Origin: Paraspadella gotoi
Lineage: Eukaryota > Animalia > Chaetognatha
NCBI GenBank assembly: GCA_051294375.1
Contig: JBJCIZ010000239.1
Span: 1,754,581-1,818,580, forward strand
Direction: 5' to 3'
Length of the DNA: 64,000 nucleotides
Positions 4,301-59,848 of the stretch are shown here, in pieces. A program made the translations under genes and the position numbers. How positions within the stretch are numbered: position 1 is the first letter of the stretch; each line of letters opens with the position of its first letter. The notes below the pieces were generated by a model. That model saw nothing but the letters and a program-made list of their open reading frames with translations. It was not told the DNA's origin and ran no database searches.

Positions 4301-7300
4301 TGCTGTAGTTGGACGTGTCCAGCATCCGGCCAAAGTTGAACTTTTGATGGGGCCAGACGTTCCACCACCGGATGTTGAGGTATTTGTCGCGGTCGAGTCG
4401 GCATTGCTCGTGGTGGAGGCCGATGGCGTGGCCCAGCTCGTGGAGGGAGACCTGGACCGTTGGTTGAATGATAGTACCGGATATGCGCGACCCATTTCGA
4501 CACTTTTTTGGTCTGTTTGTATGCGTTAGTCTGTTTAACGTTGTATCCTTTCAACAAATCACGTTTAAATGGTTGATTGAATGAGGGAGAGCGTTTTGAG
4601 TAAGGAAAGATAAGTAAATCAGCAGAAATAAAAACCACACCGAAACGACAACAAACTGCTTCAAAAACTTCTTTAACCTGATGGTACATGCAGCTGGGTA
4701 TCGCCAGGGACACCCACTGCGCCCCATTGCCCTGCATGCCGACCATCGAGTAGCAACCGTTGTCGCTGTGGAACTCGATGAAGTTTCGGTGTCCGAGTTT
4801 TTCGGCGATGGAATCGTCGAAAGGCTCGAAGCGGAGGCAAGTCTTCTCCATCCATTCCTTTGAAATAGAGATGAGATGAGATGAGATGAGATGAGATGAG
4901 ATGAGATGATAGAGACAGACAGACTAACCTTCATCGAACTATAAACCATCGAGACGTCTACGCCGTCGTAATCAGACGAGAATTTAAAAGGAATCACTTT
5001 TTTCGACCACCTTTGGCAAACGAAAAAGAACTTTCAATAATAATATTATTTATTTGTTATTATTCATTTACTCCTTTCCACCGACCGCCATTTCTCGTCA
5101 AAGACTCCGGCGCCTGACCAATGACGAGTAGACTTGATGTCGAGCTCGTCCACGCCCGCGTCCGCCTTCGACGCCGCGGAATCCAAGATGGCGTCGATGG
5201 GACGATGACTCGTCTCTTGCAGCGGAAGTTTAAAACCGGAGAGGATCTCGTCGGACGTCAACTCGCGGGAAGAGTTGACGCCCACGACTGGGATTTTCAT
5301 AGAATAACATGTTTAAGAAAATCCATTAATACATGAAATTGATACAACCAATATAAAAATGTAGGGCTCTCGTTTTTTCAAGAATAACAATTAACCAGGA
5401 GTGTGAATGTACAATTTGTACATGTTTCACGCGACAATAAGGTGAAAAAGTCATTGGAAAGACATACGCCAAAAATTTTTTCCTTCATTATAAAAATAAA
5501 TCGATATCTTTTATAATAATATAAATATAGCAAAGGATTTAGGATAAATAACTTTAGATTCGAGAGATTCACTTCCGAAACATTCTACGTCGGAAACGAT
5601 AGCAAGATGTAAATGTAGCAGATTAATTTGTGAATTGTCTGAAATGAGATTAAGTTCCTCAATCTCATTTGCATATTGTCGTATTCTGATTAAGAGATAT
5701 CCCTCTGTTAGATAAATGAGATAAAACTTAAACTAAAGAACTTTAGTTCAAGTGGGAGTAGTTTAACACATCTCAAAGACTTACCGGCGACAAACGCGAC
5801 GGCGAAAAAAATTAGCGACTTCATCGCAGAAGAAAAAAAAACGACAAAAGAAAGAAAAAGCGAAAAATATAAAAATGGATCCGACGCGGGAAAAAAGCAG
5901 CTGCGGACGCGACGGCGATTTCATATTTTTTTTCTATCGATATCGCTTTGATTAATTAATCCGTGCGTCATCATTGTGGATTCGTATTTTATATATCTCT
6001 TTCATTTTATAACATATCGTTATCATTCATTAAAACTCAATCTCAACGACGGACGTGGAATGTAAGTTGTTTTAATATTTTTTTTAAAAAAGACGTCAGA
6101 CTTTGTCTGTCTCACCATTTCCCGGCGTTGAGTTGCCGAATCTGCGAGGAATTGAAAAAGGAAAAAGTTTCTTCTTTGAATCGAGGGAAGACTCGGGCGA
6201 CGTCCGTCGTTCGTTTTAAATTGTCGTCGTGGAACATGAAAAGTTCGCCGTCCTGGAAAAGGGGGAAATGTCTATTTCAACAATTATTTAAGGCAGTGAA
6301 ATACGTCGATGAATCATTGTTTTTACAATTTATACATTCAACGGGTATTAATTAAAAGACGGCACACTATTTCAAATAATAAATCCTGAAATAATATAAT
6401 TCCGAAAATCAAAAAAATCACCCTCATTCTACTTTGGATATCTGCAGATCGGACTCGAACCCCGAGCTCCCTCTCTCGGCGGCGATTCGAAAAGAGAGCC
6501 TCGTGTTCTCCGGCGCGAGGGTCGGCGATCCTCTGTGTCCGTTGAGCTTGGGCTTCGCGGGCGCCGCCGCCGTCACGCAGGGCAGCCAGCTGGGATTTCC
6601 CGCGAGAGCGAAGGGGAGGACGTCGACGCAGATGAGAGAGACGGAAAGGAGAGCTATGAGAAATATTATTAGATGTTAAATTAAGTATTAAGTACTTATT
6701 AGTCAATTAAATAAAATTAAATTATGTTTTTAATTTTACTTTCATTGAAAGTACGATAATGGAACTTTATTTACAAACAATATAAAATTCCATTTTAAAT
6801 TCCATTCTTTTTTCCACGCTTTTCTTAAATGAGATTGAAATGAACCACAAATTATTCTGCTACAAACGAATCGAATGGAGAGAAGAATCACAGTGCTGTG
6901 ACTTTCATAGATTAAATATTAAACAACTTTCATTCCTTCCTTTCATCTTTAAACTACGTAGAGAGAGACCAACCCCTCCCACCAAACCTTTCAACTAACC
7001 AGTTTCCACGTACAACCAAGCGGAAACTCTTCTCGAGTCTTTCTCGTAAATCCTAATGACGAGAATCTGCAAAGTCAATCCCAGGGCGAGAGTGAAACCC
7101 ACGATGAGCGTAATGTGAAGAAGGATCGCCGAGGAGATTAATTTCAGTTTCAAAGTGGCCCACCCTTTGAAGTAGACGGAGGAAACGAATCCCATCACCG
7201 AGAGAGAAAAGAAAAGGCAAACCACGGCGACGGCGAAGTGACAAGCCGCCACGAAGACCACGCCCACTCTGTCTCGCTTCGTTCGTCGCAGATGAACGAC

Positions 7301-13100: not shown

Positions 13101-14314
13101 TTAATCCAGGGTCCACAGTAATTTAACCGCGGTGGTGATTCCGACGTCGGTAACGTTGAAATGAATGAGACCTTGGAAAAATAAATATAAGGAATACATA
13201 CGATAATTGATTAATTTTATACTTTAATTTTACATATATTTACCGACGAGGGTGATAATTGTAAAAAAGTAAAGGATGGCGATGCATAACTTTCCGAATC
13301 TCGGGTCCACTGGTTTGTTCATGATCAACTTTCGACACAAGTAATCTTTGAAAACGCCCTGAACGAAAAGAGCGGGATAAAAAAGTCAAACGATGATAAA
13401 ACTGAACAAAATAAAGCGATATATTGAATTATGAACAGAGTTGACCTACCTCGAGACCCCAGTGAAAATGCAGTACGACGATGAAACACAAGACGCAGTC
13501 GAGGAACCAATTCTGAGCCAAAAAAGCCACCGGGATTGCGATGACGGAGAGAACCGCGAAGACCCTTTCCACGGTCCAGTGCAACGACGGCAACATCCCA
13601 GCTTTGCCAATTCCCTCGAGTCTTGAGTCGGAGAAACGCAAAGAGAGAAAACGTTGGGTCACTCGAATTCCTTCAACAATCAACATCTTCCTCCAAGAGT
13701 CGACATCATTTGTAGCAGATTAATTTGTGGATTATCTCAATTGAGATTGAGTTCCTCAATCTCATTTGCATATTGTCGTATTTTGATTAAGCTTTGATAA
13801 ATATTTGTTCTATTGCCTTAAAGGTTTAATATTAATATTTTACATTAGTAACTGATCATGTGTTTTGTGGTTCAATTAATAGCTAAATAATTAATGATTT
13901 AATTATCATAATTGCTAGTTTACTACTTTAATCTTGGTTCCAGACTCACCTTGCTGTGGTGGAGAGAACTTTACGCAATTCCTCCGGGGGTTTAAATGTG
14001 ACGACGGGTTGGGATATGGTGGGTTGCTTCATCAGAGTGCACTAAAGAAAAATGGGGCCGGGTGGTGAAATGGATATGAAGCGGGAAATTAAGACTGGTG
14101 GGTAACGTTTCGTTCTTGAGGGAATATAATTTTTTTTATACTTGACGAGATAGAGAGATTAAGCAAACCGAAATTAAAAATAAATTATAATATAACGCCC
14201 GATTTCCCCACAAATTTCACTGAGCGTCACAGATCAATTCTCATGACTCACCGACAACGCCCCGCCGAGACGGCAAAACCTCGTGGGCGCCATCAACAAT
14301 CGCGATAAAGCCAT
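13101..14314 (-). CDS. SDHD: Succinate dehydrogenase cytochrome b small subunit
   Basis: Mitochondrial-type presequence MALSRLLMAPTRFCRL; SLHWTVERVFAV...LHFHWGLE..DY; GLIHFNVTDVGITTAVKLLW. Confidence 0.85.
13711..13791 (+). repeat. Dispersed ~80-bp hairpin repeat, copy 2 (SDHD intron)
   Basis: Contains a perfect 10-bp stem tgagattgag-ttc-ctcaatctca followed by atttgcat. Confidence 0.85.
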
Positions 14315-19816: not shown

Positions 19817-22625
19817 TCAATCTCTTTTTGGCGAATCGACAGTCGGTTCGTTTTTTTCATTGAGCAAAATGTCATTTCGATAAGACTTGATGATGAATCT
19901 GATGATGTAACAGTTGGTGAGAAAAAAAGCGATGCTGGCCAACAGAATGTAAACAAAGGTCGATTTGCCGCGGAATTCGAGCAAGTAGGCGGACAACAAC
20001 CATGCGCATTGATTGCCTAGGGTTAACTATATTTGTTAAAGGCCCTGATTACGAATATTAATTTAACACAAAAACTCACCTGACCAAAGAAAAGTGAGCA
20101 AAGTGGCTTTGGATCGTTTGAGATTCAAGTAAGGAATCAAAAGCGGTAGGAGACTTAAATACCAGATGAAATACTGTAATAATTGGCATAAAGGGAGGAA
20201 AAAGATAATATTGTAAGGAAAAATTATAAGTTATAATCAAAAATATAAGTTACATATTGCAGTACTATAGACTTCCGTGTCAAGCGAGTTTCAGATAATT
20301 TATTTCTCCCGTCAAAAAAATATTAATCCCTCTTCTTAATAAGCATGAGAATTTACTCAGAGGGTATCTTTTCTTAAAATTATCATTTATCATCAGATAA
20401 ATAAGACCATCTTTAATTTCCCCGGATTACAAATTACAATTCTAGGAAAAAAGTATATCACATTTTAGTCATAAGGTCATTGTCTTTTATGTCACTTTAT
20501 GTCGTTATATGTAACCTGTGTTTTTATTATTTTTGAAATAAAAAAAATTTAAAAAAAATCACATTTTTAGTAGAGGATATCTACCTGAAAACTTATTTGA
20601 TTTTAAAAGAATCAGAATGTTTTCGAATCTACATTGAATTTCCTTTCAGTAGCTTCCTTCCATTTTTTTGTAGGTCAGATCGTTTAGAAGTTACAGGCAA
20701 AAAAAGATCGCTACTTCAAATGAAAAATGACGAAAAAAATTATCTTTAATTTTCTACCATTTTTGGTATTTAGTTATTTGTTTTTATTTCAAATAGAGTC
20801 AATAATTGTTATATATTTTTTTAATTTAGCAATGCTATAGGCATTGCACCATTTTTTGTTAAAAAAAGTACCATTATAGCTCTCAGAAAAGAGGGAAAAA
20901 CGCGCAACATCAATATTGTGGCTGAAAAGAATTGCATTAAAGATGTAGAAAAACATTTCAATGAGAGCATGCTCAGACGAATACAGGCAGTAATCGATAC
21001 TGAAGGAGGACATATCAAATATTGAGAATATTTTACCCATGTTTTGTATATTTTTTATTGAATAAATAAACTTTTCAACAATAACGTGATACTTTTTTCC
21101 TAGATAGCATTTTATTTTTAAATAAAAGCTTTCGGCGTGATCGATTTGATTCTAATCGTTTTTCTTTTCCTTCGGGTTTTTTTGTTTTTTTTTAAGAAAA
21201 AAAAAAGCTTGCTTACTTGAGAAGTCACGACCTTGTTGAACGTGACAAAGACGGCCGTGTTAACGAAGAACACGAGTTCCAAGTGTCGATGATAATCCAG
21301 CGAGATCTTCAACAACAGGAGACATTGAGGAAGAAACGCCAACAAAGACAACGCGCCGGAAAGAGCGTTCTCGTCGGTGAGATAAATCATGAGGTAGTAG
21401 AGACTGAAGTTGTGCCGGATATCTTTGCGACTAACGTAATGAAGTCGCGTTATATAATCCACGTATATATTGTATAATCTTATCCCCTCGTTTCCTTACC
21501 CGACGTGATACAAATACGTTTGCGACAAAAACTCGTGCCCGTACAAAACGTAACAAGTCCCCGTCGCGACGAGGAAAACCGACGCCGAGACGACGACGAA
21601 CGCGAGTTGCGATTTGTTCGGCGCGAAAATCGTTCGCCAGATTTTGTTCTCTTCGTTCCGTTTCCCGATTCGATCGAGGCCCAGATTGATGTAGAGCGGG
21701 AGGGCGTAAATTATCGGGTAGATTTTCGAATGAACGGCCAACCCGTAGAAAACGGCGGAGAGGAATACTCGGTCTAGGGAATGGACCAAAACGAGAAAAC
21801 GAAGCAGGAACTTCGTTTCTAAAATCTTATGTAGTTTCTCTCTGTTTTTTTCCCCTTTGTTTTCCCCTCAACGAACCTTTCTTTCTAAAATAGAGAACGG
21901 CGAGTACGAGGGAGGCTAGGATGGCTTCGGCGTTGCCCCTCGTAGACACGGTGAAGCAGACCGGATTGAAGAGCCACAGAATCGCGCTCAGCAACGACGA
22001 GGATTCCGACGCGCCGTTAGTACGAGAGATGCGGTAGAGTAGATACCCTAATTAACGGTGGATACTCCAAGATATACCGACGAAGTTCTAAGCGTTCAAC
22101 TACCAACGCTACTCCATACATAAGACGATGGGTAATTGGCTATTGGCTCATCCCCCAAATGAATACGACCCCAAGACCTTTTCCTCTACCTGTGACAACG
22201 TCGAAAACGCTAAACACTATCTTGCCCCAAATGGGCGACAGAAAGATGTTGGGCAGTAAAACGAAAGCCAAAAGGGGCGTGTATCTGTAGGTGGGGCTTT
22301 GGTAGGGCGATTTTCCCTCGGACATGAAGGTCGCCGCTTCGGTGAAGACTTGATAATCGATATCTGGATTTCATTATGATAATCTTTATAGTTTATTTCA
22401 CAAAGTTTCGATTAAGTTTTCACAACTGTCTACCTTTGCCATAAATTATGCTTTCTGACTAATCTCCTACGTAGTTATCGCATTCAAAGTAAAGTAAAGG
22501 TTACAGACTCACGCAGACTCACCAGTGTATTTGACTGCATGACGAGCATCGTGATAACAGCCGTAACCAATCATCAACGCGCGCAATAAGATCGACAAAA
22601 TTGACAATTTAACGACGCGATGCAT
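19817..22625 (-). CDS. PIGM: GPI mannosyltransferase I
   Basis: VKYTDIDYQVFTEAA...SPYQSPTYRYTPLLAF...WGKIVF; WLFNPVCFTVSTRGNAEA; YGLAVHSKIYPIIY; RKDIRHNFSLYY; FVTFNKVVTSQYFIWY; AYLLEFRG. Confidence 0.95.
20437..21107 (+). mobile_element. Non-autonomous Tc1/mariner derivative (copy 1) in a PIGM intron
   Basis: Imperfect TIRs ctaggaaaaaagtatatcac...gtgatacttttttcctagatag; retains the Tc1 transposase C-terminus SMLRRIQAVIDTEGGHIKY-stop (~20967-21025); homologous to 57674-58146. Confidence 0.85.
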
Positions 22626-22859: not shown

Positions 22860-24579
22860 TTAATGAGGTTCGGTAAATATGATCTCGGGGATTTGTCCGT
22901 GTTCCACGTTCGTCCCGTTGGATCCGTCCATTGAATTGAGGAAAGTAAAGGTGACGGTGTCCGCTTCGCATCGATCCTTACCGTCCATTCCTTTGAAGAG
23001 AGGGAAAGGGAAGAGATAAAAATAAATTGAATTCTTGTTAGTAAATACAATGAAATATATAAATATTGTTGAGGAAACTAAATCATTATTAAACATTACT
23101 AATCAAAAGCCGAACCAAAAGATATGAAAAATAATTTAAACTCTACAATATGCAAATGAGATTGAAAAACTATCTCATTAGAAATAGACAAGGAAAACTC
23201 AACGTTCGATTCTTAAAAAGTTTTTATGCCTCATATATGTCTTATATAATATATATGCCTTATCCATCACTTCCAGGCTTTTCGGTCGAAATCAAAGAGT
23301 AGATCATCCACTATTCAATGATCAATCGTTACCTTTACGAAAATAAAAACCTTTTTTAAAAAAAAGTCATCTTTATTCATCGACTCATCCTTCATCTTTA
23401 GTTTCCCTTCTCCAACATCTTCGGTTTCCCTGCTTCCGGAGTGAGAGAAAGTAATTCCCAATTCACAAAAATCATTCATCCATTCCTTCTCACGACTAGG
23501 AGCGACACGAGACTTTTTCAGTGTCTTCACGACCCGGATTCTTCCTTCACAATTCACATGAGGTCATTCCATCCATTCGAGTCGCACATCTCACGGAAGG
23601 GAAGCTTCACCGATCCGCCCATTCACCGTAATAAGACTGAGCGCCGTTGAGAATGACGCAGGCCGAGTAGAGGACGTCGGCGTTGATCTCGACGGGATTG
23701 TCGAACTTGACTCGGTAGGTGGGTTCGTCCTCGGGGCAGTGGGCCGTGATGCGTTGGTGAGTCTCGGCGATCACGTTGCCCTGGTACATGAGCTGGGCGG
23801 TGACGACGTGACAGGCGCAGCCTTGGGCCCAGCCGTAGAGGCCAAAGCCGACGATGGCCACTTTGCGAGAGGCCTTGAAGGCGATGGAGTGGAGGCCTGG
23901 GGAGAGGTAAAAAAGGGGAAGTGGTGGAGTGGGTTGAGAGAGAGAAGGTGAGTATTCGATTTTGTCCCCGGGGATGTTTCGGGATTCCTCACAGGATCCG
24001 AGAAACCGTAAAAAGATCGATCGAATTTTAACTCCGTAAAAAGTTTAAAAACTAAAAAAAAATCTGTAAAAATTTTTATTTCTCTCTCACTCTCTCTCTC
24101 TCTCTCAGAACCAGAGGCTCCTCTCCCCCCCTCAATAACAATAAAAATGACTTCGCATTTCGCACTCGGGGAAAAAGTCAGTGAAACATGACACTGTATT
24201 TTTGTTTTGCCAGGCTCCAGCAGCATTTTGAAAAATAATAAAAAAAAGCAATAAAGCAATTACATCTACTGTCGGGGTTTGGGACCTCGACTGTATTTTT
24301 CAACGGCGACGACGGGAAATTGGATTCTCGCGGAGATTAGATTAAACCCTTCGCGTTGTTCCATTTCGTCGTCGTTGTCAAATAAACAACAGTCAGCGAG
24401 CCGTTGCTGCTGCTTCCCCCTTTTTTTCGTCTATCATGTGGTATTAGGTCACGGGGCACTTCGGGATTCAGCTCGACCCTCTCGATCTCAAGATGTGAGA
24501 GATCGAAGTCATGACTTTCCATTTCCTCGACTCATGTTTTTTTCGAGGATCCTGCGCGGAAAAAAAAACACACGTAACA

Positions 24580-24620
<41 letters not shown>

Positions 24621-27600
24621 CGGCGAAAAAGGTCGGAACGGCTTCTCCGGCAAAGTCGGAGACCTCCTCAAATTCTCGATCGAAAAACATCAAAAAAGTT
24701 TCTCCTCCCGACGAGTCCAACCCACATGAATGAGCGGAAAAAAATCGTTCCTCTCTCTCTCTCTCTCTCGTTCTCTAACTCAGTCTCTAACTCTCTCTCG
24801 CGAGTATTTGTTCCTATTTCGACGTCATAAAAGAAAAATACTAAAATTCTATAAGGCGCAATAAATTAAAGCGATATTTACCGATCTTTGGGTCTGCAAG
24901 AAACGAAAACAATCTCGGGGATTCGATCGCGATTTTCCATTTTCCATTTTCGATCTTTTTTCTTTCTTAAATTCTACAGTTTCTTTGTTCTCACTACTTT
25001 TTTTTTTCATCGCATGACGAAGGGGGAACCGAGACGGGCGGCGTGGGTTTTCTTCCGTCGGGGTTAAACGCAACTCTTTGGTCGGTTGGTCGGTCGGCTT
25101 TTTTTTTAATATTATTTTATTTAAAAAAAAAATGAAATGTTTTAAAACAATTTTAAAATTGATAAAAAAGTTGAAATTAATATTATAATAAAGTGTCCAA
25201 GCATTAAACTAGAACTATAGCTACAACATTAAATTATTATTACCACTCCATCTGTTACCCAAAGAACCGCGACCAAAGGACATATCCTGTTTTTTTAAGA
25301 GGAGCAGCGTGGCCTTTGAAAAAAAAAAAAAAATTCAGCTCGGCTCCGCTCACACGATCCTCTAAGAGGAATCATCAGAGATTTTAACTAAAGAAAAACC
25401 CCGAGGATGATAACTCAAGTTTTGCTCATCGTCTCAACGCTGTTTTCGGCGGGGATCAATGCAAGTAAGTTAAGCGCATCCACGTCCTGGGATTAGGATT
25501 GCTCCGTTTGTTTAAAATAATGGTTTTGGTAGAAGAATCCATTCGACTGAGAACCAAGAAGAGTAAGAGCACTGGATGGAACAATAATCGCATTTTCGAT
25601 TTCCACATTGCACTATATTTCCCAATCCAAAACGTTTCATTAGTTATAACAGTCCTCTTGAAAAAGCAAACTCATTATTTAACATTTGTTATGCATAATC
25701 AAATAGATTCTCATCCGCAAAACGCGGAGGCCGGTATTACGTCACCTCGAAATGAAGACACACCTTAACTTACTTCCTTACTTCACTTCCCCAATACCAG
25801 AAATTTTCGACCTGGAACTCAAGACTTGCGACAAGAGCGGCTCCGGTTCAAACGCCTACGTCGACGTTCGCCTCACGGGAACGCTCGCCGACTGCGAACG
25901 CAAGAAGATCAACCAGCTCTCCCTCTACAGGAATAAAAAATCTTCATACGCGATTTCCTGCGCCGATGACGTGGGATTCGTGACCGCGTTGCAACTGCGC
26001 ATCGACAGAAGCGACCAACCTTGCTTCGTCCGCGTCCGATTATTGGATCCCGTCGACAAAGACGTTTGCTTCTTCAGCACAACGTTCGAGAAGGATTTTT
26101 GGATCAAGCAAAAGAATAAGTGGACGGAGAAGATTTCTCAAAGTAAAAGGAGGGAATTTCGAGTGGAACCGTTTTGAGGTCGTTGCTAAGGTTTTCGTTT
26201 TGGACCCGCAGGTTGGGAAGACAGCGAAGAGTCGGTCAAGTTCGGAGGTCCAGTCGGTCATTTCTCAACGACGCACGACTTTAGACGTTGCAAGGTAAAT
26301 ACCCTTAACTAAGGGTACATGCCCTCTACCTATTTTAATAACGCTATACTGACGACTATTGAAAGACACTATATTATTTGTATAAAACCAACAACACGAG
26401 AAATACTAAATATTTACACAGTACGACGCCGTATCTTTTCCTCCCAGATACAATGCGCGTCGACGGCGCCGTCGAAGGGTTGGCGATGGAACCGGATGAA
26501 CGGAAAATGCGAATGCCTCAATCGCATCGAGACTCGTTTCTACGAATCCGTGGACAACTTCATTTCCGGCGCCATCGACAGATGCGCCGACGCCACCTTT
26601 CCGCGTTTTCTCAATTCCTTGAGCCCAGTTTGCGACGGTGAGAGGGATAAGTGGGGGGAGGGTTTGGGGTGATTCATTTTAAATAATTTATTCTTTATTG
26701 TATTACTTTAACTGCCCAAAACATAACGAAAAGAAAGCTGATAGGAAACGGCAGTTTTAACGCAATCCATCTCTTCCACAGAAAACCGATCGAAAAAATT
26801 TAATGCATTTTGTAGTCACCCATTTTGAGTCAAATTAAAATATGTATACTTCAAGAACCCTCTCACCAAAGAAAACTTCGACCGAACTCCTGAGAGATAG
26901 TACAGTGAAATAAATCCTCTCCCTCCCTCAGCCATGAAAAGCGCCGAACGAACCTACGAAAACGGGACGACCTGCCGCATCAAGTGCGTTCGGTTTGAGG
27001 AGAACGACCCCGAGGGCGTCGTCGTCTGCCGCTCCACGGCCGTATGGCGATCCGAGCCAAACTGGGACGTCTTGGCGCCGCCAAACTGCGGACTTCCGGT
27101 CAGTTGGATCGCCGGGCTAACCGTCGGCTCCGCGGTAGGCGTGGGCCTCGTCTGTTTCGTCGTTTATCTAACGTGGAAACGATACGAGTTTAAGAAGCAG
27201 CAGCCGCCGCACACGAAGGGAGGCGGCGGCGACGCGGGAGGAAAGAAAAAGATTCTCAAACACCGAACCAGCTACGTGTTGGCGCTAAAGGACAAGCGCG
27301 ACGACTACGTCGACTTCGGCGTCGTACCAAAAGTCAGTTTCTCCAGAGCGATCTACGAAGCGTCCAACTCCGACTCGGACAGCATCGAGTCGGGTCTGCA
27401 GTTTCGTCTGCAACAGCAGCAGCCGGGGCCTTCTCGCAAGATATCCTTCGGTAGACCAAGGGGAGATCTCAGACGCGGCGGGGACGGAGGAGAAGACGCC
27501 GAGAGATTCCTACCGCCGCTGGGAAACGACGGAGAATCCGTGGGAAGCAAACGGAGGAAACTGTCGACGATCTTCATTTCGCCGCATGCCTTTCAGCAAA

Positions 27601-30600
27601 CGCAGCCAAAAGACTTGCTCCGGCGACTGAGTCGAGAGCTTCCATCTACTCTAGTCTTCACGGACGACGGCGCCGTCGCGAGATCGCCGCCGCAAAGAAC
27701 GCCGCGAGAACGGCGATTGACGCCGGCTCAGGGTTCGCTCGTGGATTCTACCGACATCTTCGAAGCCAACCAGCGCACTTTCGCCGCCAAACCGGCCGCC
27801 TTTATCAAAAGCGAGCAGACGTTCGAGAGGGGTCAAAACGCCTTCAAGAAAGGCCCCAGCACCTTTGAGAGAGGGCAGAACGCCTTCAAAGTCGGGCCCG
27901 ACACTTTCGAGCAAAACCAAAAGACATTTCTCGACGGTCAAAACATGTTTCAAGAAGGGAGGGAAGTGTTCAAGACGAGCAACGACGCGTTCCAAGCTGG
28001 ACAGCGGCGTTTCGATCGCGGCAAGGAAGCCTTCGAGCAGGGACAGACCCGGTTTCAACGGACGCGCGGGTCGACGGATGCTTTGGGAGACAGCGACATC
28101 GGACTCAATGTCGGAGGGACGGCGAAGGCTAAAAAGAAGATTTCGGACGCGTCCTTCGCGAGCGTCAAAACTGTTGCTTGAATTTAAAAGTCTTTTTTAT
28201 AGCACATTTGGTTGTTACGTGTTGCATGACATTTTTTTGTAAAGAATGTAAAAATTGCCATATTACAAAATTTTTAACCTTCTCGCACGACTTCGTTGTG
28301 GATGAGACAGTGCAGAAAAAACAAAGTGAAAAAACTTTCTATTATTTAATAATGTCGCCGCTTAGCCGTTGCAAGTAAGATTTATGGGCCCTTCCATAAT
28401 TAAGCGTTTTAACTGAACTAGTTAAAAATGTGAAAAAAGCCTACAACGAAATACAGTATGACAAAAAGGTTTAGAATTTGATAAAAAATACGTTTAATAA
28501 TTACATTTATAAATAAGTAAGCCGTTTTGCCGTTGCTAGTAGGATTTAACGAATGTTCTGTGGTGGTATTTTCACACCACCTCACGTCCACGATCATTCA
28601 GCCAATACCATTGGCTCAGAGGGGGAACACACCATCCCAGGCGTTGTGTTCCATCCACAGTCCTAACGACTTCCGTCTGCGTTGGCAAAGCGAGACCGTC
28701 CTAGGGTAACAGCGCCAGTGACTGGATGCGTCACTGAGGGTCGGAAGCCCCCAAAGCCAGCAGTGAGATGCCCCATCCCAATGGGCATCACAGGCAACCC
28801 GGCGGTTGCCATAAGTGGTGGACGTGAGGTGGTGTGAATATATCACCCCCGTTCCATAATTAAGCCTCAATCGTCAAAAATGTAAAAAATTCAAAAATGC
28901 AACACGATACATACAATGCAATAAAGTAGAAAAACTTAGGATTTAATAATAGTAAGAAAAATAGGAGATTTCGGTCTCACCCTCAAACCACAACTCACCG
29001 TAAAACGTGCTGGAGACGTGAAGAAAGTAAGGAAATCTCCGGCAGCGACGCTCGGTGCCGACCTTGCGGCGCGGCTCGCAGATAAACTCGAGATTTCCCG
29101 GTTTGTCGTCGGCGGTGAAGTACTGGAACATCTTGACGCACTCCTCGGCCGTGAGAAGGCCCGACTTGGAGACCCGGTTGGAGAAGTCGGCCAAAGAGAT
29201 GGTCGGCACGCGGATCATGTGAAGGACGGGGCCCAGCATTTTCCGCTTCTGATCCGGGGTCGGTTCGAGGCCGCGGCGGAGGCATTCGGCGGCGGCCCAG
29301 CGGACGGACGCCTTTTTTTTGGAAGGGGGTGTTTGACGGTATTGACGAACGTTGTCATTAACATCGTCATTATTCCTCGTTACCTCGAATAACTTAATCT
29401 CTGGAATGGAAAGGGCGTCTCGTGACACGAGCGACTGGAGGGTGAGATGGTCGACCTCGAGGAAGCCTTCAGAGTTGAGGACCTCTTCCGTGTGGAGGTC
29501 GATGTCCCTCAGGCATTTCTCCGCCAGTTCCTCTTCGTCGTAGAGTTTGGACTAAAAATCGACATTTAAAATTAACAATCAGTAGATCAAAATTAACCAC
29601 ACAACTAAATATCAATCAGTTTTAAAGAAAGGCAAGGATTCCGAAGAAATTAAACGACGAAAAAGTCTATTTTAGAATATTGAATGAAGTTTTCAAAACT
29701 GCCATACCACGAAAATTATAAGCATTCTATTCAATCACAATGAAAGACAAGCACTTAAATGTCATTCAGTATTCACGTCTCTTCACCTGCATCAGAATGA
29801 CGCAGACGTTTTCCGGTTTGAGATTCTTCTCCAAATAATTGATGCACTCGTTGGCCAATGGGTTAACCATGTACTTTTTGGCGGCGTACAACGTCGGCAA
29901 AACGGATTCCGGCTCAAGATTGATTTCCTGTCGAAGTAACAAATAGAAACGAGATGTCGATCTTATTTTTCGTCGTGGATAGCTATTTTCAATGGGTCCG
30001 TCTGTTGTTTTAATTTTTACCATACTCCCAGAATAGGTTAACAAAATAAATGCAAACGAAATTTACTTTCGGATTATAATCCGAGATATTCGATTCACTG
30101 TGGAAATTTACTTATCTTAACCGCATCACAAAATCATTAATGGCGTAATTACTAATTAGGCTTACTATTTTACCTCGCTGTAAATGTAGCGAAGCATCGC
30201 CATAAAAGCCTCGGGATCCACGTCGGGCACCATGATTTCGTCGCCGTCTGGAGAAAGTGAGAAATAGTAGGAGACGATTTCAAACCAATTAAAATTTTCC
30301 AAAATTTTTTTTTTTTCATAAAAAGTTGATATAAAAATATTTCATTAAGTTGTCAAAAATCGGAAAAAACCTATATTTTAAGCTGAAAATTTATTTTGTC
30401 CATTCAATATAGTTTTTTAAATTTTTAACCCTACTTAATGAAAAAAAATTTAAAAATGATTTATATTTTTTTATAGACTTTTGACGAAAAATTCAAATTA
30501 AAATTTAAAAAATCCCATTTTGAAATTTTAGAAATATAGGGTTCTGCGAAAATTAAAAAACATAAAATTAATTTATTTAATATATTATGTTCACTGGTGG

Positions 30601-32859: not shown

Positions 32860-35800
32860 TTTCGACAAAAGCTGCAGACGTTGAAGCCGCCGTTCAAAAC
32901 GTAGCCGACGAAGGCTTTGTACTGCAAACCGAGGCATTTGCTCATCGCTTCGAATTTGGCGAAAAACGAAGGATTCTCTTGCGACGTCTTAAGCCCGAAC
33001 GTCGTTCTCGCCTTCACGAGCTGAGAGAAGCGGATCTCTCATTTGTTTAATTTTTTTTTTAATCTAATTTTTTTAATTAATTGTGCAACCGACCAAGAAA
33101 ATATCCAACCAACCGACCAACCAAATGACCGACCTTTCTAAACGGCCTCTCGCTAAAATCGTTGTCTTCGATGTCGCCCATCATGACGAAGAGCATCTCG
33201 ACAATCTCTTTGCTGAAGCAAAAGACAATGGCCAACGATAACAACCGGTACAACGACAACAACAACAACGGGGCGACCTGAGATCCACTCCCGCAACTTG
33301 CTTGGCCACGTGATGGAAGACGTCCTGAGTGATTTTAACGCCGGCCATGTGGTAACTCTTGAAGGCGATCTTCATGAGGATGGGATAACTAAAGAAGACG
33401 TTGAGCTGGAGGAAGTCGTCGCGAGTGACTCCTTTGGCAAAAGCGAGGGGGGGTAAAGGGGGGGGGAGGTCGGCGAGGGGGGGAAGGGGGGCGAGGTCGG
33501 CGAGTGGGGTGAGGAGATGTGCGAGAAAGAATTCGAGAGTTACGTCAGATCTGACGCGAGTATAACAGGGGGTTATATTTAGAATAGACAATATACAAAT
33601 GACATTGAGGAACTCGATCTAATTTGAGATAATCCACGGATTAATCTGCTACACAAAGATCCCTACCAAAAAGATGTTTGGTTAGTCATTTGCCATAGCG
33701 AAGGAAAGATTTGAAAGGATACGGATGAAGCGTGAAAACGATTCGTACGGGAATATGTTTTCGAGGTCGACGAGTTCTTGTTGTAAAAATTTTTCATATT
33801 TCTCTTCATCTTCTTGATTCGGTTTAACGCGGAGGCGGAGCCGTGGTGGAACTTCGTCATGCTGCGACGAAAGAAAATAATTTGGTTTTTTTTATGGAGA
33901 AAGAAAAAGGAAAAGAATTGCGAAGACCTATCGAGAAAATCGAAACCCGGGATCGAGTCGTATTCGTCGGGCCTGACAAACAAAAAAAACACAATACGTT
34001 TTCAAAACACGCTATTGTTCGGGCAATGTCGAAAACCTCACATGTACGAGTCAAATTCCAAAGAATTGACTTCTGCTTTGAGCCGTCTCTGAAAAGTGAT
34101 GAAATCTTCCACCGCCATGCTTTGATCCAAATTGGGTCCGAAAAAAAACTTGGCCACGCGAGTTTTGGGGGCGTTCTGTCGGAAGACAACAAATAAATAG
34201 CTGCCCACCCGATTCTGATTAGACGTGAATGTAACCGAGTGAATGTTGAGAATGCTGCTGCCGTGATCCCGATGCTTCTTCCACATTTCCGTCTGACCCA
34301 ACATCACGCTTTCGATCAAGTGAAATTTGCGGGCGTCGATCAACCCGTTGCCGTCGTCGTCGAAAAGACTGGAGGCGAAAACAACAACGACTCTCTCTTG
34401 GGACAGCGAGCAAGAGACCTCGTTATATAGGACCTTCACAATCTCGTTATAACCGATTTCTCACTTGAACGCCATTCGAAAGTGACGAACGGGATGCGTG
34501 AGAACCATCACCAGGAAAATGTAATCGGCGTAGTTGATGAGGCCGTCGGGACTGATCATGAAAAACGTTGAATCCGGCATCAAGTCGCAGACAATCTGTT
34601 CAGGTTTAGATAAATGTTAATAATAAGAATAATAAAACTAAGGGAGTTAATGGGGGCTCTAATAACGAGTACATTGAAGACTCGAAGTTGAAAGTCGATG
34701 AGAAAGAGACAATACAGACGACCAAACTTGTTTCAAATAAAACAAACATACTACCAAAGGACCCAACCGTGTCTGATTCAGCATCGAAAGTTCGGAAACT
34801 GTCCAGCCCCAGCCCGTCCGGCTGGATGCTGTTGGGAGAGATGGATCTGACAAAATCCTCCGGATTCATGAAGGTTCGAGTTTTGACGCCCGAGTGATGA
34901 CGGATGTCGTGATGCGAGTGATGTCCGTGATGGCCGGACTGAGGGTTTGTGTGTGTGGGATGGTCGTAGGTGTGGGGGGTAGATAGAGATGATTATAAGC
35001 TTTAGTGAAGATGATTAAACGAAAAAGAAAAGGAAAATTTTTTTAGAAAAGTCAACGGTATTTACAAAAGACCTTGTGATGCTTGTCGTCCTCCACTGTC
35101 TGAAGCGTCGCAAAATAACGGAAGATCTGTTACCCATGAGGGGGGGGGGTGAAGTCGCAGGAAAAATCATGTTGGAATCAGTTATCGTGACTCCTTCACT
35201 AACACAACCTTGTCCGGCGTCGAAAACATCCGCAACCGATTTTCATAGGCGACGATGTGTCTCTCTCGAAATCCTTTTCGCGCTCTCAGGATGTGCAGTG
35301 AGAGTTCGTCCGGCGTGGCGTAGGGATCGTCGGAACCGGTGAAAATCTTAAAGAGTTATAGTTAACGAGAATTCGTCGAACGATCGATTGTGATCCGTTA
35401 ATCGCAAACCTTTCGATAATTGTGATTCTTCAGGTTATCGTCCGTGACGCATCGTTCCTCAGAATGGCTCACGTACTCTCCGTCGTCCTTTATTCTCACG
35501 GTGCAATGCATGCCTCCTGAGAGATCGATCACCCCCCAACCGTTCGTCAACTCTCCCTTCAAATCTGAGATTTCTTAGAAAACCCGACCCTTTCTGGTGA
35601 GGATGGCGCATTTGGCCGAATGCCTGACGATCGGCGGGAAATCGCCGGGCGGTTCGTCGGCGTCCTTTCCACCGCCGAAGGGCGTCGATTCTTCGTCGGC
35701 GTCGGACACTTGGGCGTCGTCCTTATGAGCGGCGTCGTGGCCGCGGACGCCGTAGTGGTCGCCGCAGATCGTCCTCAGCATGACGATGAGGGCTCTGACG

Positions 35801-39400: not shown

Positions 39401-42400
39401 CGTTGTTGTTTTCGCCTCCAGTCCTTTTCGACGACGACGGCAACGGGTTGATCGACGCCCGCAAATTTCACTTGATCGAAAGCGTGATGTTGGGTCAGAC
39501 GGAAATGTGGAAGAAGCATCGGGATCACGGCAGCAGCATTCTCAACAATTCACTCGGTTACATTCACGTCTAATCAGAATCGGGTGGGCAGCTATTTATT
39601 TGTTGTCTTCCGACAGAACGCCCCCAAAACTCGCGTGGCCAAGTTTTTTTTCGGACCCAATTTGGAATCAAAGCATGGCGGTGGAAGATTTCATCACTTT
39701 TCAGAGACGGCTCAAAGCAGAAGTCAATTCTTTGGAATTTGACTCGTACATGTGAGGTTTTCGACATTGCCCGAACAATAGCGTGTTTTGAAAACGTATT
39801 GTGTTTTTTTTGTTTGTCAGGCCCGACGAATACGACTCGATCCCGGGTTTCGATTTTCTCGATAGGTCTTCGCAATTCTTTTCCTTTTTCTTTCTCCATA
39901 AAAAAAACCAAATTATTTTCTTTCGTCGCAGCATGACGAAGTTCCACCACGGCTCCGCCTCCGCGTTAAACCGAATCAAGAAGATGAAGAGAAATATGAA
40001 AAATTTTTACAACAAGAACTCGTCAGACCTCGAAAACATATTCCCGTACGAATCGTTTTCACGCTTCATCCGTATCCTTTCAAATCTTTCCTTCGCTATG
40101 GCAAATGACTAACCAAACATCTTTTGGTAGGGATCTTTGTGTAGCAGATTAATCCGTGGATTATCTCAAATTAGATCGAGTTCCTCAATGTCATTTGTAT
40201 ATTGTCTATTCTAAATATAACCCCCTGTTTATACTCGCGTCAGATCTGACGTAACTCTCGAATTCTTTCTCGCACATCTCCTCACCCCACTCGCCGACCT
40301 CGCCCCCCTTCCCCCCTCGCCGACCTCCCCCCCCTTTACCCCCCCTCGCTTTTGCCAAAGGAGTCACTCGCGACGACTTCCTCCAGCTCAACGTCTTCTT
40401 TAGTTATCCATCCTCATGAAGATCGCCTTCAAAGAGTTACCACATGGCCGGCGTTAAAATCACCTCAGGACGTCTCCATCACGTGGCCAAGCAAGTTGCG
40501 GGAGTGGATCTCAGGTCGCCCCGTTGTTGTTTGTTGTCGTTGTACCCGGTTGTTATCGTTGGCCATTGTCTTTTGCTTCAGCAAAGAGATTGTCGAGATG
40601 CTCTTCGTCATGATGGGCCGACATCGAAGACAACGAATTTTAGCGAGAGGCCGTTTAGAAAGGTCGGTCATTTGTTTGGTCGGTTGGTTGGATATTTTCT
40701 TGGTCGGTGGCACAATTAATTAAAAAATTAGATTAAAAAAAAAATTAAACAAATGAGAGATCCGCTTCTCTCAGCTCGTGAAGGCGAGAACGACGTTCGG
40801 GCTTAAGACGTCGCAAGAGAATCCTTCGTTTTTTCGCCAAATTCGAAGCGATGAGCAAATGCCTCGGTTTGCAGTACAAAGCCTTCGTCGGCTACGTTTT
40901 GAACGGCGGCTTCAACGTCTGCAGCTTTTGTCGAAAATGATATCGATGATAATGATGTCTTTTTTGTAAAACGATTTGCCTAATCATTCGTCGATCCGTG
41001 TTCGTTAATCATAATGTCATAGACAACCTTTTTTTTTTTTTCCATATACAGAAAGTACTATACTATTTAATTGACTAATTTTTAACTATGGTTCGTATGA
41101 GACCTATCGAAGTAAAGACTCTGAGAGAGGAAACGCGGACCAAGAGCGACGGGAAGAGAATCCCGAGTTGGAGGAGGATCTGCAGAACGCTATCAACGAG
41201 CTGCGCGTCGAGTGCGGGGATGAGGGTGTTGACGAAGCGCTCGGGGCGGAACCGCCGGGTCGGAGAGTCGCCGGAGTCGAGGGGCTGTCTCCCGCGGAAG
41301 GGAGGAGTCCCTCGGGAGGAGTTCATCATGTAGAACACTTGCACAGGTGGGCGCGAATGGGGTCGGAATGTTAAAGGAATTTTTAATTTTACTTTAATCT
41401 GATTTCAAATATTGTTGTAAGTTTTCATGTTAACTCGTAAAAAATAAGTTGGTGTTCTGTAAGTTTTTTTTTTTTTTCAATCATTCGTCCTCATTTTAGA
41501 TTTGTCCTACTGATTCTTCTTTATTGTATTTTTTTCTTTGCAATATCTTGTCGCTGCTCTTGCTGTTTTTGAGATAATTACTCTCTTACTCGTTCAAAGT
41601 CTCTCTTGACAAGTCTTGTGAGTATCAAATCGAAAAATATAAGTAATAAGTATATATCAGAAATTCTAACGAGGTTGAAATTTATCAACTTTCTTCCCAG
41701 ATTTTTCGCTTCCAACTTCAGCTCCGGACATACAGCCTTTGGTCAACATACTTCCCGGACCCATGGTGAGTTAGACGGTCACCCCGTTACTCTTTTCTTC
41801 CTTACCACCGATCTCTTTAATTTCCATCCTTGGTTTCCCGCCCAGCTTCCCGGACCGGGTCCCCTTCCACCAGGATTTAACGTTCATTCCTTTGAGCCCG
41901 ACTTCGGCTCCGTCGGCGCCTTCTCTCTCTACTTCCGGTTTGGAGAGATTCCCTCCTAAGTTCACCCTTCGCGGCGCCGTTGTGGAACTGCCAGCGCCAG
42001 CGGTGCCATTGGGGGAGCAGTCGGTGGAAGCGGCGCCATGGGCGGAAGCGGCGACGTCAAAGCCAAAGTTCGAGCGCCGCAACCTCAACAGCCCGCAAGC
42101 GATCGTCTTAACCCGCTGAGCGCCGGCGTATCGCGTTCTTCTCAGTGGAGCACCGCGCCGCGCCCTCCATTGCTCCGCAACAACAGTTCGTCAACCCGGC
42201 TTCCAACTCTTTTCCTCCAAACGATTTATCCGACTCCGCGACGCCGCGAAACTCTTCGGCGCAGTTGCCAGCCTTTGCGGAGGCCGCCAATAATTCATCC
42301 TCACGGTCAGGCCCGGCGATACCGTCGCAGCCTCCCGCCGCGGCCGCAGTGGCCGTCGCTGACCAACCCCAGGCTCAGAATCAACAGCAACCCTCACAAA

Positions 42401-57397: not shown

Positions 57398-59848
57398 TTA
57401 AAGGTTCAACGAGAAAGAAGAGTATCCCCGAGAGACGCAAAGGTCGACTCGATCGCTGCTTCCGGCGACGGCGGTGACGGGGAATTCCGAGTCGCGTCGA
57501 TTCCATTCGACGCTATAGACGCTCGACGGGGTGACGGGCATTCTGAGGGAGAGGTGGCCGGAGAGATCCCAGTGGTTCACGTGGGGGGACGAGCCTGATA
57601 AAGAAAGGGGAGATTAAGGTTATTAATTAATCTTTTAAATATTATTATAAAAGAGGCGCTTATTTTTCATGTACTATTTAGGAAAAAAGTATATAACATT
57701 TTTAATAAAGGATATCTATTCGAAAACTTATTTGATTTAAAAAAAATCAGAATGTTTCTTGATCTACATTGAATTTTTTTTTAGTAGCTTCCTTCCATTT
57801 TTTTCTAGGTCAAATCGTTTAAAAATTTCAGGCCAAAAAATATTATAACTTTAAATGAAAATGGCGAAAAAAATCATATTTAATTTTCTTTCCATTTTTA
57901 ATATTGAATTATTTTTTTATTTCGAATAGAGTTAGTTATTTTTTTTTAAATTAGCAATGCTAAAGGCCTTGCACCTCTTTTTGGTTCAAAAAAATATTAT
58001 TATACATTTTAGAAAAGAGGGAAAGACGAATGCAAGCAATAATAAAAGCCGAGGAAAAGCATACCAAATATTGAGAATGTTTTACCTATATTTGTATATT
58101 TTTATTGAATAAATGAATTATGTTATATATTTTTTTTGCTAGATAGTATGTAAATGCTTTATGAAATTGGTAAAACCAATATAAAAATTACCCATTCATT
58201 TAATAAATAAGCTATCTTGCCCTGACTTGGGACAGGTTTTGCTGGTTTAAGGGCTAAAAATACAAGATAAAAACATAGCAGGACCCTCTCTGATAGTCGA
58301 GTTTATTCACTGTTTATATTCAATTAGTAATATAAATAGGGAATATTAATTTATATATATTAATTTTCCTTGAATTTAGCTACTTCTAAATCAATAACTG
58401 AAAAACATCTTTACCATTTACATACATACAGACTTACCAGTACCAGTACAATACCAGACAATATATTTGCAATTCGTAAATAATAACCCTTTTCCAGGGC
58501 TTTATTAACCATTAAGAAAATAAAAATAATAAAACCTTTATGCCCTAAATCTAACTTCTCAACAAAAAAAATCTTCTCATTCTCCAACCACCATCCTCAC
58601 CCGCGCTGACGAGTCCCTCCTCGCAAACCGGACGACGTTTTGAGCGAGCGGAGTCCGAGGATCGAAGACGACGAGCGGCTTCATGGCGGAGTGTTTGGAA
58701 AGACCGTTGAAGGCCGAGCTCATCTTGAGGTGGAAGAGAGAGAGGCGAGGTCCGCCGCCGCAGATCACGCGGTCTTCTTCGACGTCGAGGCAAGAGATCC
58801 ATTTGCCGACGGAAGGGCGGGCGCAGGAGGAATGTTCATTGGGTTCGTGGGGGGGGAGAATTGAAAAAGATAATGTGTAATAGTTACAAATAATGTAAAA
58901 AATTGTATTTTCGAGCTTTTTCTGAATATTAGGGCTACGATGCTTCGAGAGTCTTGCTGTGAAAAACCGCAAGTTACATTAGATCTCAGTACGATTCGAC
59001 AATCGACAATCAAATTTAATTCGAATTTAAACAGAGACGTTGTCTTTTTTGGGTGTTTTCTAGTTCTTAATTTATAATAATAATATAATTATTTATTATT
59101 ATTACCTATGAGAAAAACTGATCCGCCGGTCTTTTTCTCGAATCCCAAAATCTGAGGGTCCCGTCTTCGCTTCCCGATATCACAGTGTGATCGTCCTTGA
59201 TGGCCAGGCAGTGAACGTAGTCGGAATGACCCAAGAACTTGCGGAGTAAAGCACCTTTTTTAAAAAAATGGATTTTATTCATTGAATAAAATTATTTATA
59301 AATTTACAGTAAAAATTACAGAAACAACTCAAAAACGGATTCGAGTAAAATTAAAACAAAACAATTCTTTACCCACCCGTTTCGATCGACCAACAATAGA
59401 CGGTTCCGTCGCCGGCGGCGGCGAACAACTCGGAACCCCTTGCGACGAGGGCGTTGATCTCCGGCCGACCACCGACGGCTTTGTCGATAGGAGCGGTGAG
59501 AGACCAAGCGGGTCGGCGCTGTTCCACGACGCCCACCTCCTCGGCGACGCAATCTTCCCAGGACCACCCATCGATCCGACCCACGCCGCCCGCGCATAGG
59601 AAGGCGCCGGCGTTGGTCAGGGAGAAAACGGGGTCTTCGTCGTCGTCAGCGCTGAGTTTAAATGCGGACGAACGTTTTGAGGGATGCCCGAAGACGTCCC
59701 GAAGGCGGAAGACGGAGATTTCGCCGTAGTTGTTGCCGACGGCGAGAAACCGGCCGCAGGGGGAAAACTGTTGGGCGTAGGAGGTCATGTAGAGTTGGGA
59801 TATCTTGGTCGCGCCCGCCATTTGGGATATCTTGGTCGCGCCCACCAT
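57398..59848 (-). CDS. THOC6: THO complex subunit 6 (WD40)
   Basis: QQFSPCGRFLAVGNNYGEISVF; PEINAL...LFAAAGDG; GHSDYVHCL...SGSEDG; GKWISCL...ICGGGPRLSLFHL; PVTPSSVYSV. Confidence 0.88.
57674..58146 (+). mobile_element. Non-autonomous Tc1/mariner derivative (copy 2) in a THOC6 intron
   Basis: TA|ctatttaggaaaaaagtatataaca ... tgttatatattttttttgctagatag|TA; transposase tail RRMQAIIKAEEKHTKY-stop. Confidence 0.85.
59795..59848 (-). repeat. 27-bp tandem duplication of the THOC6 start (MVGATKISQ/MAGATKISQ)
   Basis: ttgggatatcttggtcgcgccc(g/a)ccat x2. Confidence 0.9.

Follow-up and report, generated by a model that had tools for sequence, protein, structure and literature searches.

A high-copy, twister-bearing repeat in an intron of Paraspadella gotoi as a candidate LTR of a small animal retroelement

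Positions 28559-28813 of the 64,000-nucleotide stretch of Paraspadella gotoi DNA analysed here (the window, meaning throughout the whole stretch) are a high-copy interspersed repeat. With a little more confidence than doubt, we read this unit as the LTR of an LTR retroelement, small and probably without coding capacity, that carries a predicted P5-type twister ribozyme and would work in the manner of the plant LTR retrozymes. To the more specific form of this reading we give slightly less than even weight: an animal LTR retrozyme based on a twister, non-coding and Gypsy-dependent, in which the twisters of two LTRs would cut out an RNA circle, which would be present in thousands of copies, and whose T1-swapped permuted twister would be missed by standard Rfam scans. 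An earlier reading of the letters alone (the sequence-only reading) had proposed a non-coding, ribozyme-bearing mobile repeat that most likely moved via RNA, and this much is supported.

Part of the stretch was present in 12 public sequencing runs from five studies, and the contigs of seven of the 12 were placed on the window. X1, X2, X5 and X8 are DNA runs of organism A, and X9 is a fifth organism-A run, taken as RNA from a spliced junction alone (the run records label none of the runs RNA). Depth is given as summed contig depth, which over-counts and is no copy number; contigs cannot show level, strand, ends or circles.

By the spliced junction in X9, the host locus is an intron of a BTB-BACK-PHR gene on the minus strand (23897-28998, with GT-AG ends), in agreement with the earlier description of a GC-rich core in an AT-rich intron. 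The ribozyme strand of the unit is antisense to the BTB-BACK-PHR pre-mRNA. The main features of the locus are:

23897-28998, minus strand: host intron of 5.1 kb (X9 spliced loose end, splice sites, Pfam)
26901-28181, plus strand: last exon of a nested plus-strand gene (open frame and X9 contig)
28559-28813, plus strand: fixed-ended repeat of high copy number and likely LTR, here as a solo-LTR-like copy, from the depth plateau and loose contig ends

The X9 contig of the nested gene stops at 28451, 107 bases before the unit. The nested exon probably encodes a transmembrane segment, about every seventh residue of its C-terminal tail is Phe, and it gave no Pfam match; upstream of it, inside the same host intron, is a PLAT-domain exon (25707-26177). 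The gene content of the window is compact and intron-bearing, with an astacin-like frame (recognised by eye) and an LTA4H exon that has about 50% identity to vertebrate and other animal proteins, the protein search giving no close relative. Several blocks of 0.6-5.7 kb between 30765 and 48944, direct and inverted, near 10-N gaps and 97-99% identical, are probably due to uncollapsed haplotypes or to an artefact of the assembly, and may instead stem from a recent segmental duplication. Two other repeats were seen: a dispersed one of about 80 bp, 85-93% alike and in both orientations (5614-5694, 13711-13791, 33583-33653 and 40140-40210), and an AT-rich dispersed one of about 450 bp, some 80% alike (20558-21070 and 57693-58117), which is possibly another transposon remnant.

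The contrast in depth between the unit and its surroundings is very large. In X1 and X2, summed contig depth reached about 1.0-1.5 million in the core against 30-95 in the flanks; X5 and X8 showed a like contrast, and depth over 28600-28810 was about 10^4 times that of the flanks in all four organism-A DNA runs (summed contig depth, not copy number). Loose contig ends were found before 28559 and behind 28813/28814 in each of these runs, and the 3' end was also found in X9. The counts were 41 contigs before 28559 and 82 plus 94 behind 28813/28814 in X2, and 26 plus 16 at the left end and 64 plus 87 at the right end in X1. The unit is thus 255 bp long, with its 3' end at either 28813 or 28814. 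As a direct lower bound on copies, at least 176 X2 contigs exit the unit at 28813/28814 into unrelated DNA. Neither a single-copy locus nor a housekeeping RNA describes the repeat; within the 64-kb window the unit is single copy. Depth is about tenfold lower at its 5' end, partly from the divergence of the window copy from the family.

The longest Met-started frame is 59 aa, so that the element holds no credible ORF, as the sequence-only reading had said. A scan for Pol III boxes gave no B box on either strand of the unit, and no tRNA gene was called in the window by ARAGORN. The termini read TG...TA and do not follow the canonical TG...CA, a point against an LTR; non-canonical LTR ends exist. 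The unit was found in the RNA assembly (X9), where depth was higher at its 3' end and the flanks of the window locus were uncovered, contigs being unable to show level or strand. In X9, part of the unit also occurs in two long records (3737 and 1998 bases), in one of them at its very start; these may be host transcripts into which a copy has inserted, or else a partner element.

A twister-like domain had been proposed at the centre of the repeat, and it holds up. Following the layout in Table 1 of PMC8501958, the parts are:

28681-28761, plus strand: P5-type (circularly permuted) twister layout
28681-86/28756-61, plus strand: P5, 6/6 pairs in the window copy
28690-93/28710-13, plus strand: P2, 2/4 pairs in the window copy and 3/4 in most other copies
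28694-95, plus strand: GA, with the general base
28696-98/28742-44, plus strand: T1 pseudoknot, 3/3 Watson-Crick pairs
28699-701/28704-06, plus strand: P1, 3/3 pairs, 2-base loop
28707-09, plus strand: UAA loop
28707/28708, plus strand: U^A step in the UAA loop, where the layout predicts self-cleavage
28714-16 with 28747-48 and 28736, plus strand: T2 pseudoknot, 3/3 Watson-Crick pairs
28717-22/28730-35, plus strand: P3
28737-40/28749-52, plus strand: P4, 3/4 pairs in the window copy
28741-48, plus strand: L4

The order in the window is P5, AAA, P2, GA, T1, the P1 hairpin, UAA, P2, GC, P3, P4 with L4, AAA and P5, i.e., the 3' half of a standard twister stands upstream. The core letters (UAA loop, GA, GC of T2 and U...AAGC of L4) are intact and both pseudoknots can pair. 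T1 reads CCG/CGG against the published GGG/CCC, swapped on both sides with the pairing kept. With the T1 letters left free, a permuted-twister descriptor found this site alone, and matched none of 150 block-shuffled windows. The Rfam twister-P1 model gave 18 bits at the site against a gathering score of 67.2 (E 0.81), a weak score that we attribute to the circular permutation and the different T1 letters. At the gathering threshold no Rfam family matched in the window, and the hammerhead families gave no match up to E 10 on either strand; the Rfam listing keeps the best clan match only and holds no row for twister-P5. The twister is not the minimum-energy fold of the unit, and even in the majority family form P2 has a C-A and P4 an A-C mismatch, and P1 is very short. 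In mutational studies T1 pairs were exchangeable and mismatches in P1, P2 and P4 were tolerated (PMC5113685; bioRxiv 10.1101/2024.07.11.603121). The unit holds a complete twister layout, from which self-cleavage is predicted.

The T1-swapped permuted pattern gave no viral, six metagenome and eight prokaryote-genome matches. Stem pairing of P1 2/2 with P4 3/3, as the window copy has it, was seen in none of these 14 and none aligned to the unit at E 0.01, so all were taken as chance. A 17-base window motif in a viral contig had no flanking similarity and was likewise put down to chance.

Contig depth is flat across the predicted cleavage site and the unit begins 149 bases upstream of it. Sequence that runs through the cut in this way fits a ribozyme within an LTR and not one that makes the 5' end of a LINE, and a twister-headed RTE LINE was rejected on these two points.

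Folding beyond the ribozyme involves two further domains:

28600-28679, plus strand: 5' hairpin domain, three hairpins and a closing helix (28617-23/28673-79)
28767-28810, plus strand: two 7-bp 3' hairpins (28767-73/28783-89 and 28793-99/28804-10)

The hairpins listed in the sequence-only reading are where it had placed them. Its description of the insertion as highly folded stands for the window copy with its inverted arm (z -7.5); much of that strength comes from the extra arm, and the unit alone gives z -3.1. The kissing loops it had suggested do not fit the family, in which the letter at 28727 of the GGAUG loop is a minority one, 68-95% of the depth differing from it across five organism-A runs. 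At three stem places (28675, 28711 and 28760) more than 98% of contig depth differs from the window copy, indicating that this copy carries private damage, two of the three places being in the twister.

Variation was concentrated in the loops, with the ribozyme stems conserved. The variants listed hit 5 of the 142 places that are paired or in the core and 15 of the 74 others (Fisher p 1e-4), in a test that leaves out the three window-private places, that treats related and so not independent copies, and for which two helices were trimmed after the variants were known; with untrimmed helices the values were 7/146 and 13/70 (p 0.002, in a run with an index slip in one 3' hairpin). Positions 28629 and 28647, partners of one pair in the 5' domain, both vary across the family. 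A 90-95% identical relative in X11, a biofilm metagenome, departs from the family at six listed places and lacks four bases of the P3 loop; one of these differences falls in a helix and keeps a G-U pair.

The extent of the insertion had been read differently before, as 446 bp bracketed by a 14-bp target site duplication, RNA-derived and with a 30-bp terminal stem as the family plan. The 14-bp direct repeat is there, and an exact repeat as long occurred in only one of 300 shuffles of the flanks. However, 28406-28558 (153 bases) is at flank depth and not at repeat depth, and aligns to the preceding 165 bases with a score of 81.5 that none of 500 shuffles reached. The 14-mer thus comes from an older, degenerate tandem duplication with units of about 165 bp:

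28392-28405, plus strand: 14-bp repeat, end of unit A of the older tandem duplication
28852-28865, plus strand: 14-bp repeat, end of unit B, whose remainder (28406-28558) lies on the other side of the insertion
28555-28558: left copy of the likely 4-bp target site duplication GTTC
28851-28854: right copy of the likely 4-bp target site duplication GTTC

The duplicated region as a whole (28236-28950) is AT-rich, lies in the 3' region of the nested gene and has about three units, the second of them split. With the insertion and one GTTC taken out, the 14-mer is preceded by the same spacer of seven bases that the sister tandem unit has. Given the flank depth, the tandem duplication, the GTTC copies and the restored spacer, the insertion is likely 28559-28850 and the true target site duplication likely the 4-bp GTTC. 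With the family also stopping before the right arm of the stem, we give the 446-bp model next to no credence, both of its repeats being nevertheless present where it put them.

Family flanks suggest a 4-bp, ATAT-like target. The left-flank consensus ends in ATAT (or ATA plus C) and the right flank starts with A, C or G followed by TAT, these consensuses being unpaired per copy, from one species with an AT-rich genome, and with an agreement of 0.42-0.5 over 30 letters. Within the accessible text of two reports, a 4-bp ATAT target is given for several Drosophila Gypsy families (PMC3276498) and ATAT as the most common duplication of the ant PbTRIM (PMC3532108).

Besides the loose ends at 28813/28814, a shared loose end lies behind 28820 in six of the seven runs (X1, X2, X5, X8, X10 and X11; no X9 row was among those listed):

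28814-28820, plus strand: first seven bases of the longer form, a 2-base spacer and TGGTG, a PBS-like start (shared loose end)

The continuation was found in 19 contigs of X2, 14 of X1, 11 of X5 and seven of X8, with an agreement of 0.68-0.81. This longer form is itself multi-copy, with a depth of 21.7k in X1 (bin 28815-26), and X10 and X11, two runs of low depth, contain no other form. Scored against a published PBS list, the continuation from TGG onwards matches 11 of 13 letters of the tRNA-Trp PBS of Gypsy-32_NVi (supplement of PMC10886601), and none of the next five letters. The chance of at least eight matches in ten is 4e-4 per tRNA type, or a few percent over all types and offsets. Searched in the literature, the short PBS-like motif gave unrelated primer lists only. 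Thirty letters of the continuation are visible, and no two-LTR copy, polypurine tract or interior is readable from the contigs, which speaks against the LTR reading; the internal region has at least 85 bases, from the X10 contig. Fixed ends, a continuation led by TGG and a 4-bp target together are likely the anatomy of an LTR followed by its PBS.

Two of the contigs with the continuation deserve mention. In X10, labelled organism B, a single 276-base contig at depth 6 covers 28623-28820 and is 95-99% like the unit plus continuation; it may be due to contamination, co-sampling or a shared element. In X11, a 506-base contig (28608-28820) holds the diverged relative, 283 more bases upstream and the same continuation; a collapsed cycle of LTR plus interior, of about 476 bases, would give a contig of such a length.

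The same anatomy would be expected of an autonomous, protein-coding LTR retrotransposon (Gypsy-like) with a twister in its LTRs, whose copies would be ordinary solo LTRs. The fixed ends, the 4-bp target and the PBS-like start fit it equally well, and the end of the interior is unread. We consider it unlikely on the argument made for circles in the available text of PMC4918200, by which cuts in both LTRs would delete the terminal redundancy needed for strand transfer; in addition, our searches of open-access PMC and bioRxiv gave no report of such an element.

The right arm of the 30-bp stem sets the window copy apart:

28818-28850, minus strand: inverted copy of the first 33 bases of the unit (29/33 identical)

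That stem had been taken as the closing helix of the element, with a long terminal inverted repeat around the twister. As a pair of sequences it is real (28562-28591/28818-28847, a 30-nt inverted repeat, 93% complementary), but it is not the architecture of the family, which ends at 28813/28814, before the arm. Among the contigs listed, passage from the unit into the arm occurs only in the contig of the window locus itself. Depth drops from about 10^6 to 1-2 x 10^3 at the arm, a remainder that 5'-end contigs laid in reverse can explain. A MITE-like non-autonomous DNA transposon with 4-bp duplications and a chance twister-like sequence would account for inverted termini of 33 bp flush with a 4-bp duplication, as the window copy has them, and fixed ends with a short palindromic target are common to TIR and LTR elements. 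Yet the family lacks the right arm, leaving an imperfect terminal match of five bases, the ribozyme stems are conserved relative to the loops and a PBS-like continuation stands behind the unit, so that we regard such a transposon as very unlikely.

The arm begins where the sequence shared with the longer form is left (28820/28821). In 64-95% of depth the letter at 28592 is one that makes 28589-28593 complementary to the TGGTG of 28816-20, and if DNA of LTR plus PBS folded back on its 5' end through this complementarity, the junction would be explained. The arm, however, ends in CCC, which is no mirror of the TGT at the left end and weakens an account by fold-back and integrase.

Inverted partial terminal copies are also a trait of Penelope elements. 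The corresponding alternative is a Penelope-like pseudo-LTR or SINE-like non-LTR retrozyme, with a twister in place of the hammerhead and inserted by target-primed reverse transcription; to it point the inverted copy just described, the tenfold lower depth at the 5' end and one single-copy joint in X1 that goes back from 28808 to 28599. Animal retrozymes, moreover, are units of 150-450 bp tied to Penelope pLTRs, according to the parts available of PMC7229834 and bioRxiv 10.64898/2026.07.22.740005. Against this, the 5' end is fixed at one place, its lower depth is partly divergence of the window copy, no high-depth head-to-tail joint is present among the 15 of 53 and 15 of 36 joints listed, the unit has no poly(A) tail and its flanks suggest a short palindromic target. 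The TGG-led continuation also sits badly with animal retrozymes, described in the same two partial sources as having no PBS. We judge this alternative decidedly unlikely, and on the lack of a hammerhead, the lack of a high-depth head-to-tail joint among those listed and the PBS-like continuation, a metazoan non-LTR retrozyme or Penelope pLTR of the known kind was set aside. Target-primed insertion, which the sequence-only reading had favoured, gives way to the indications of the fixed-ended 255-bp LTR-like unit, the 4-bp target duplication and the PBS-like neighbour. Helitron-like ends were considered by inspection, and the 4-bp duplication and the PBS-like neighbour argue against them.

Under the reading as an LTR with a twister, a full element of LTR, PBS, internal part and LTR would be transcribed, the twister in each LTR would cut at 28707/28708 and a host ligase would circularise the monomer. 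A tRNA, probably Trp, would prime a Gypsy-type reverse transcriptase given in trans, and integrase would insert the cDNA at ATAT-like sites with a 4-bp duplication. A circular intermediate is plausible. Most copies would be solo LTRs, arising via recombination or from short cDNAs. The window copy, likely solo-LTR-like and aberrant, would consist of the LTR, seven bases of PBS and the inverted first 33 LTR bases; a fold-back of plus-strand strong-stop DNA would have put the left LTR end at both termini, and the product would have been inserted with duplication of GTTC. Lying antisense in the host intron and with three private stem mismatches, this copy is probably a passenger.

Among the known systems, the closest to the unit are the plant LTR retrozymes, as far as the available text of PMC4918200 describes them: a ribozyme in an LTR-sized repeat, a PBS after the LTR, a 4-bp target site duplication, many solo LTRs, a non-coding LTR and a presumed Gypsy helper, a plan that the unit would share. 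That text places LTR retrozymes in plants, with a type III hammerhead, whereas the unit has an animal host and a twister, 255 bp instead of about 330-350 bp, a Trp-like instead of a Met PBS and a far higher apparent abundance, and is known from the LTR-like unit and a PBS-like start. It may work like an LTR retrozyme and is a candidate member of that group. The ant PbTRIM (PMC3532108) and the animal Helenus elements (PMC10886601) have short LTRs, a 4-bp duplication, a tRNA PBS after a short spacer, solo LTRs and an inferred Gypsy helper, all of which the unit would share, and differ in that the portions of these sources available describe no ribozyme in the LTRs; in the main Helenus text the word ribozyme occurs in a reference only. 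The absence of a B box from the unit and of a tRNA gene from the window are further differences. The metazoan non-LTR retrozymes (PMC7229834; bioRxiv 10.64898/2026.07.22.740005, both in part) are, like the unit, small, abundant, structured and non-coding ribozyme repeats of animals with a presence in RNA assemblies, but have type I hammerheads, tandem arrays, no PBS or PPT, longer duplications and an origin in Penelope pLTRs.

The twisters of Perere-3 and RTE LINEs, as given in the part available of Liu et al. (2021; PMC8501958), also place a twister core in an abundant animal retroelement. There the cut sets the 5' end of the element and the target site duplication supplies P1, with T1 as GGG/CCC; here the permuted twister (P5 type) lies centrally and wholly inside the unit, 149 bases of which precede the cut, and T1 is CCG/CGG. 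A search of open-access PMC and bioRxiv gave no paper with a twister in an LTR. The swapped T1 would define a class of natural twisters that lies below Rfam thresholds. If our reading is true, the LTR-retrozyme life cycle also evolved outside plants, on the basis of a different class of ribozyme, and animal genomes conceal families of this kind. Its confirmation would give the twister a second biological role, would suggest that the retrozyme cycle depends on self-cleavage and not on one ribozyme class, and would provide an abundant animal system in which to ask whether solo LTRs come from circular templates.
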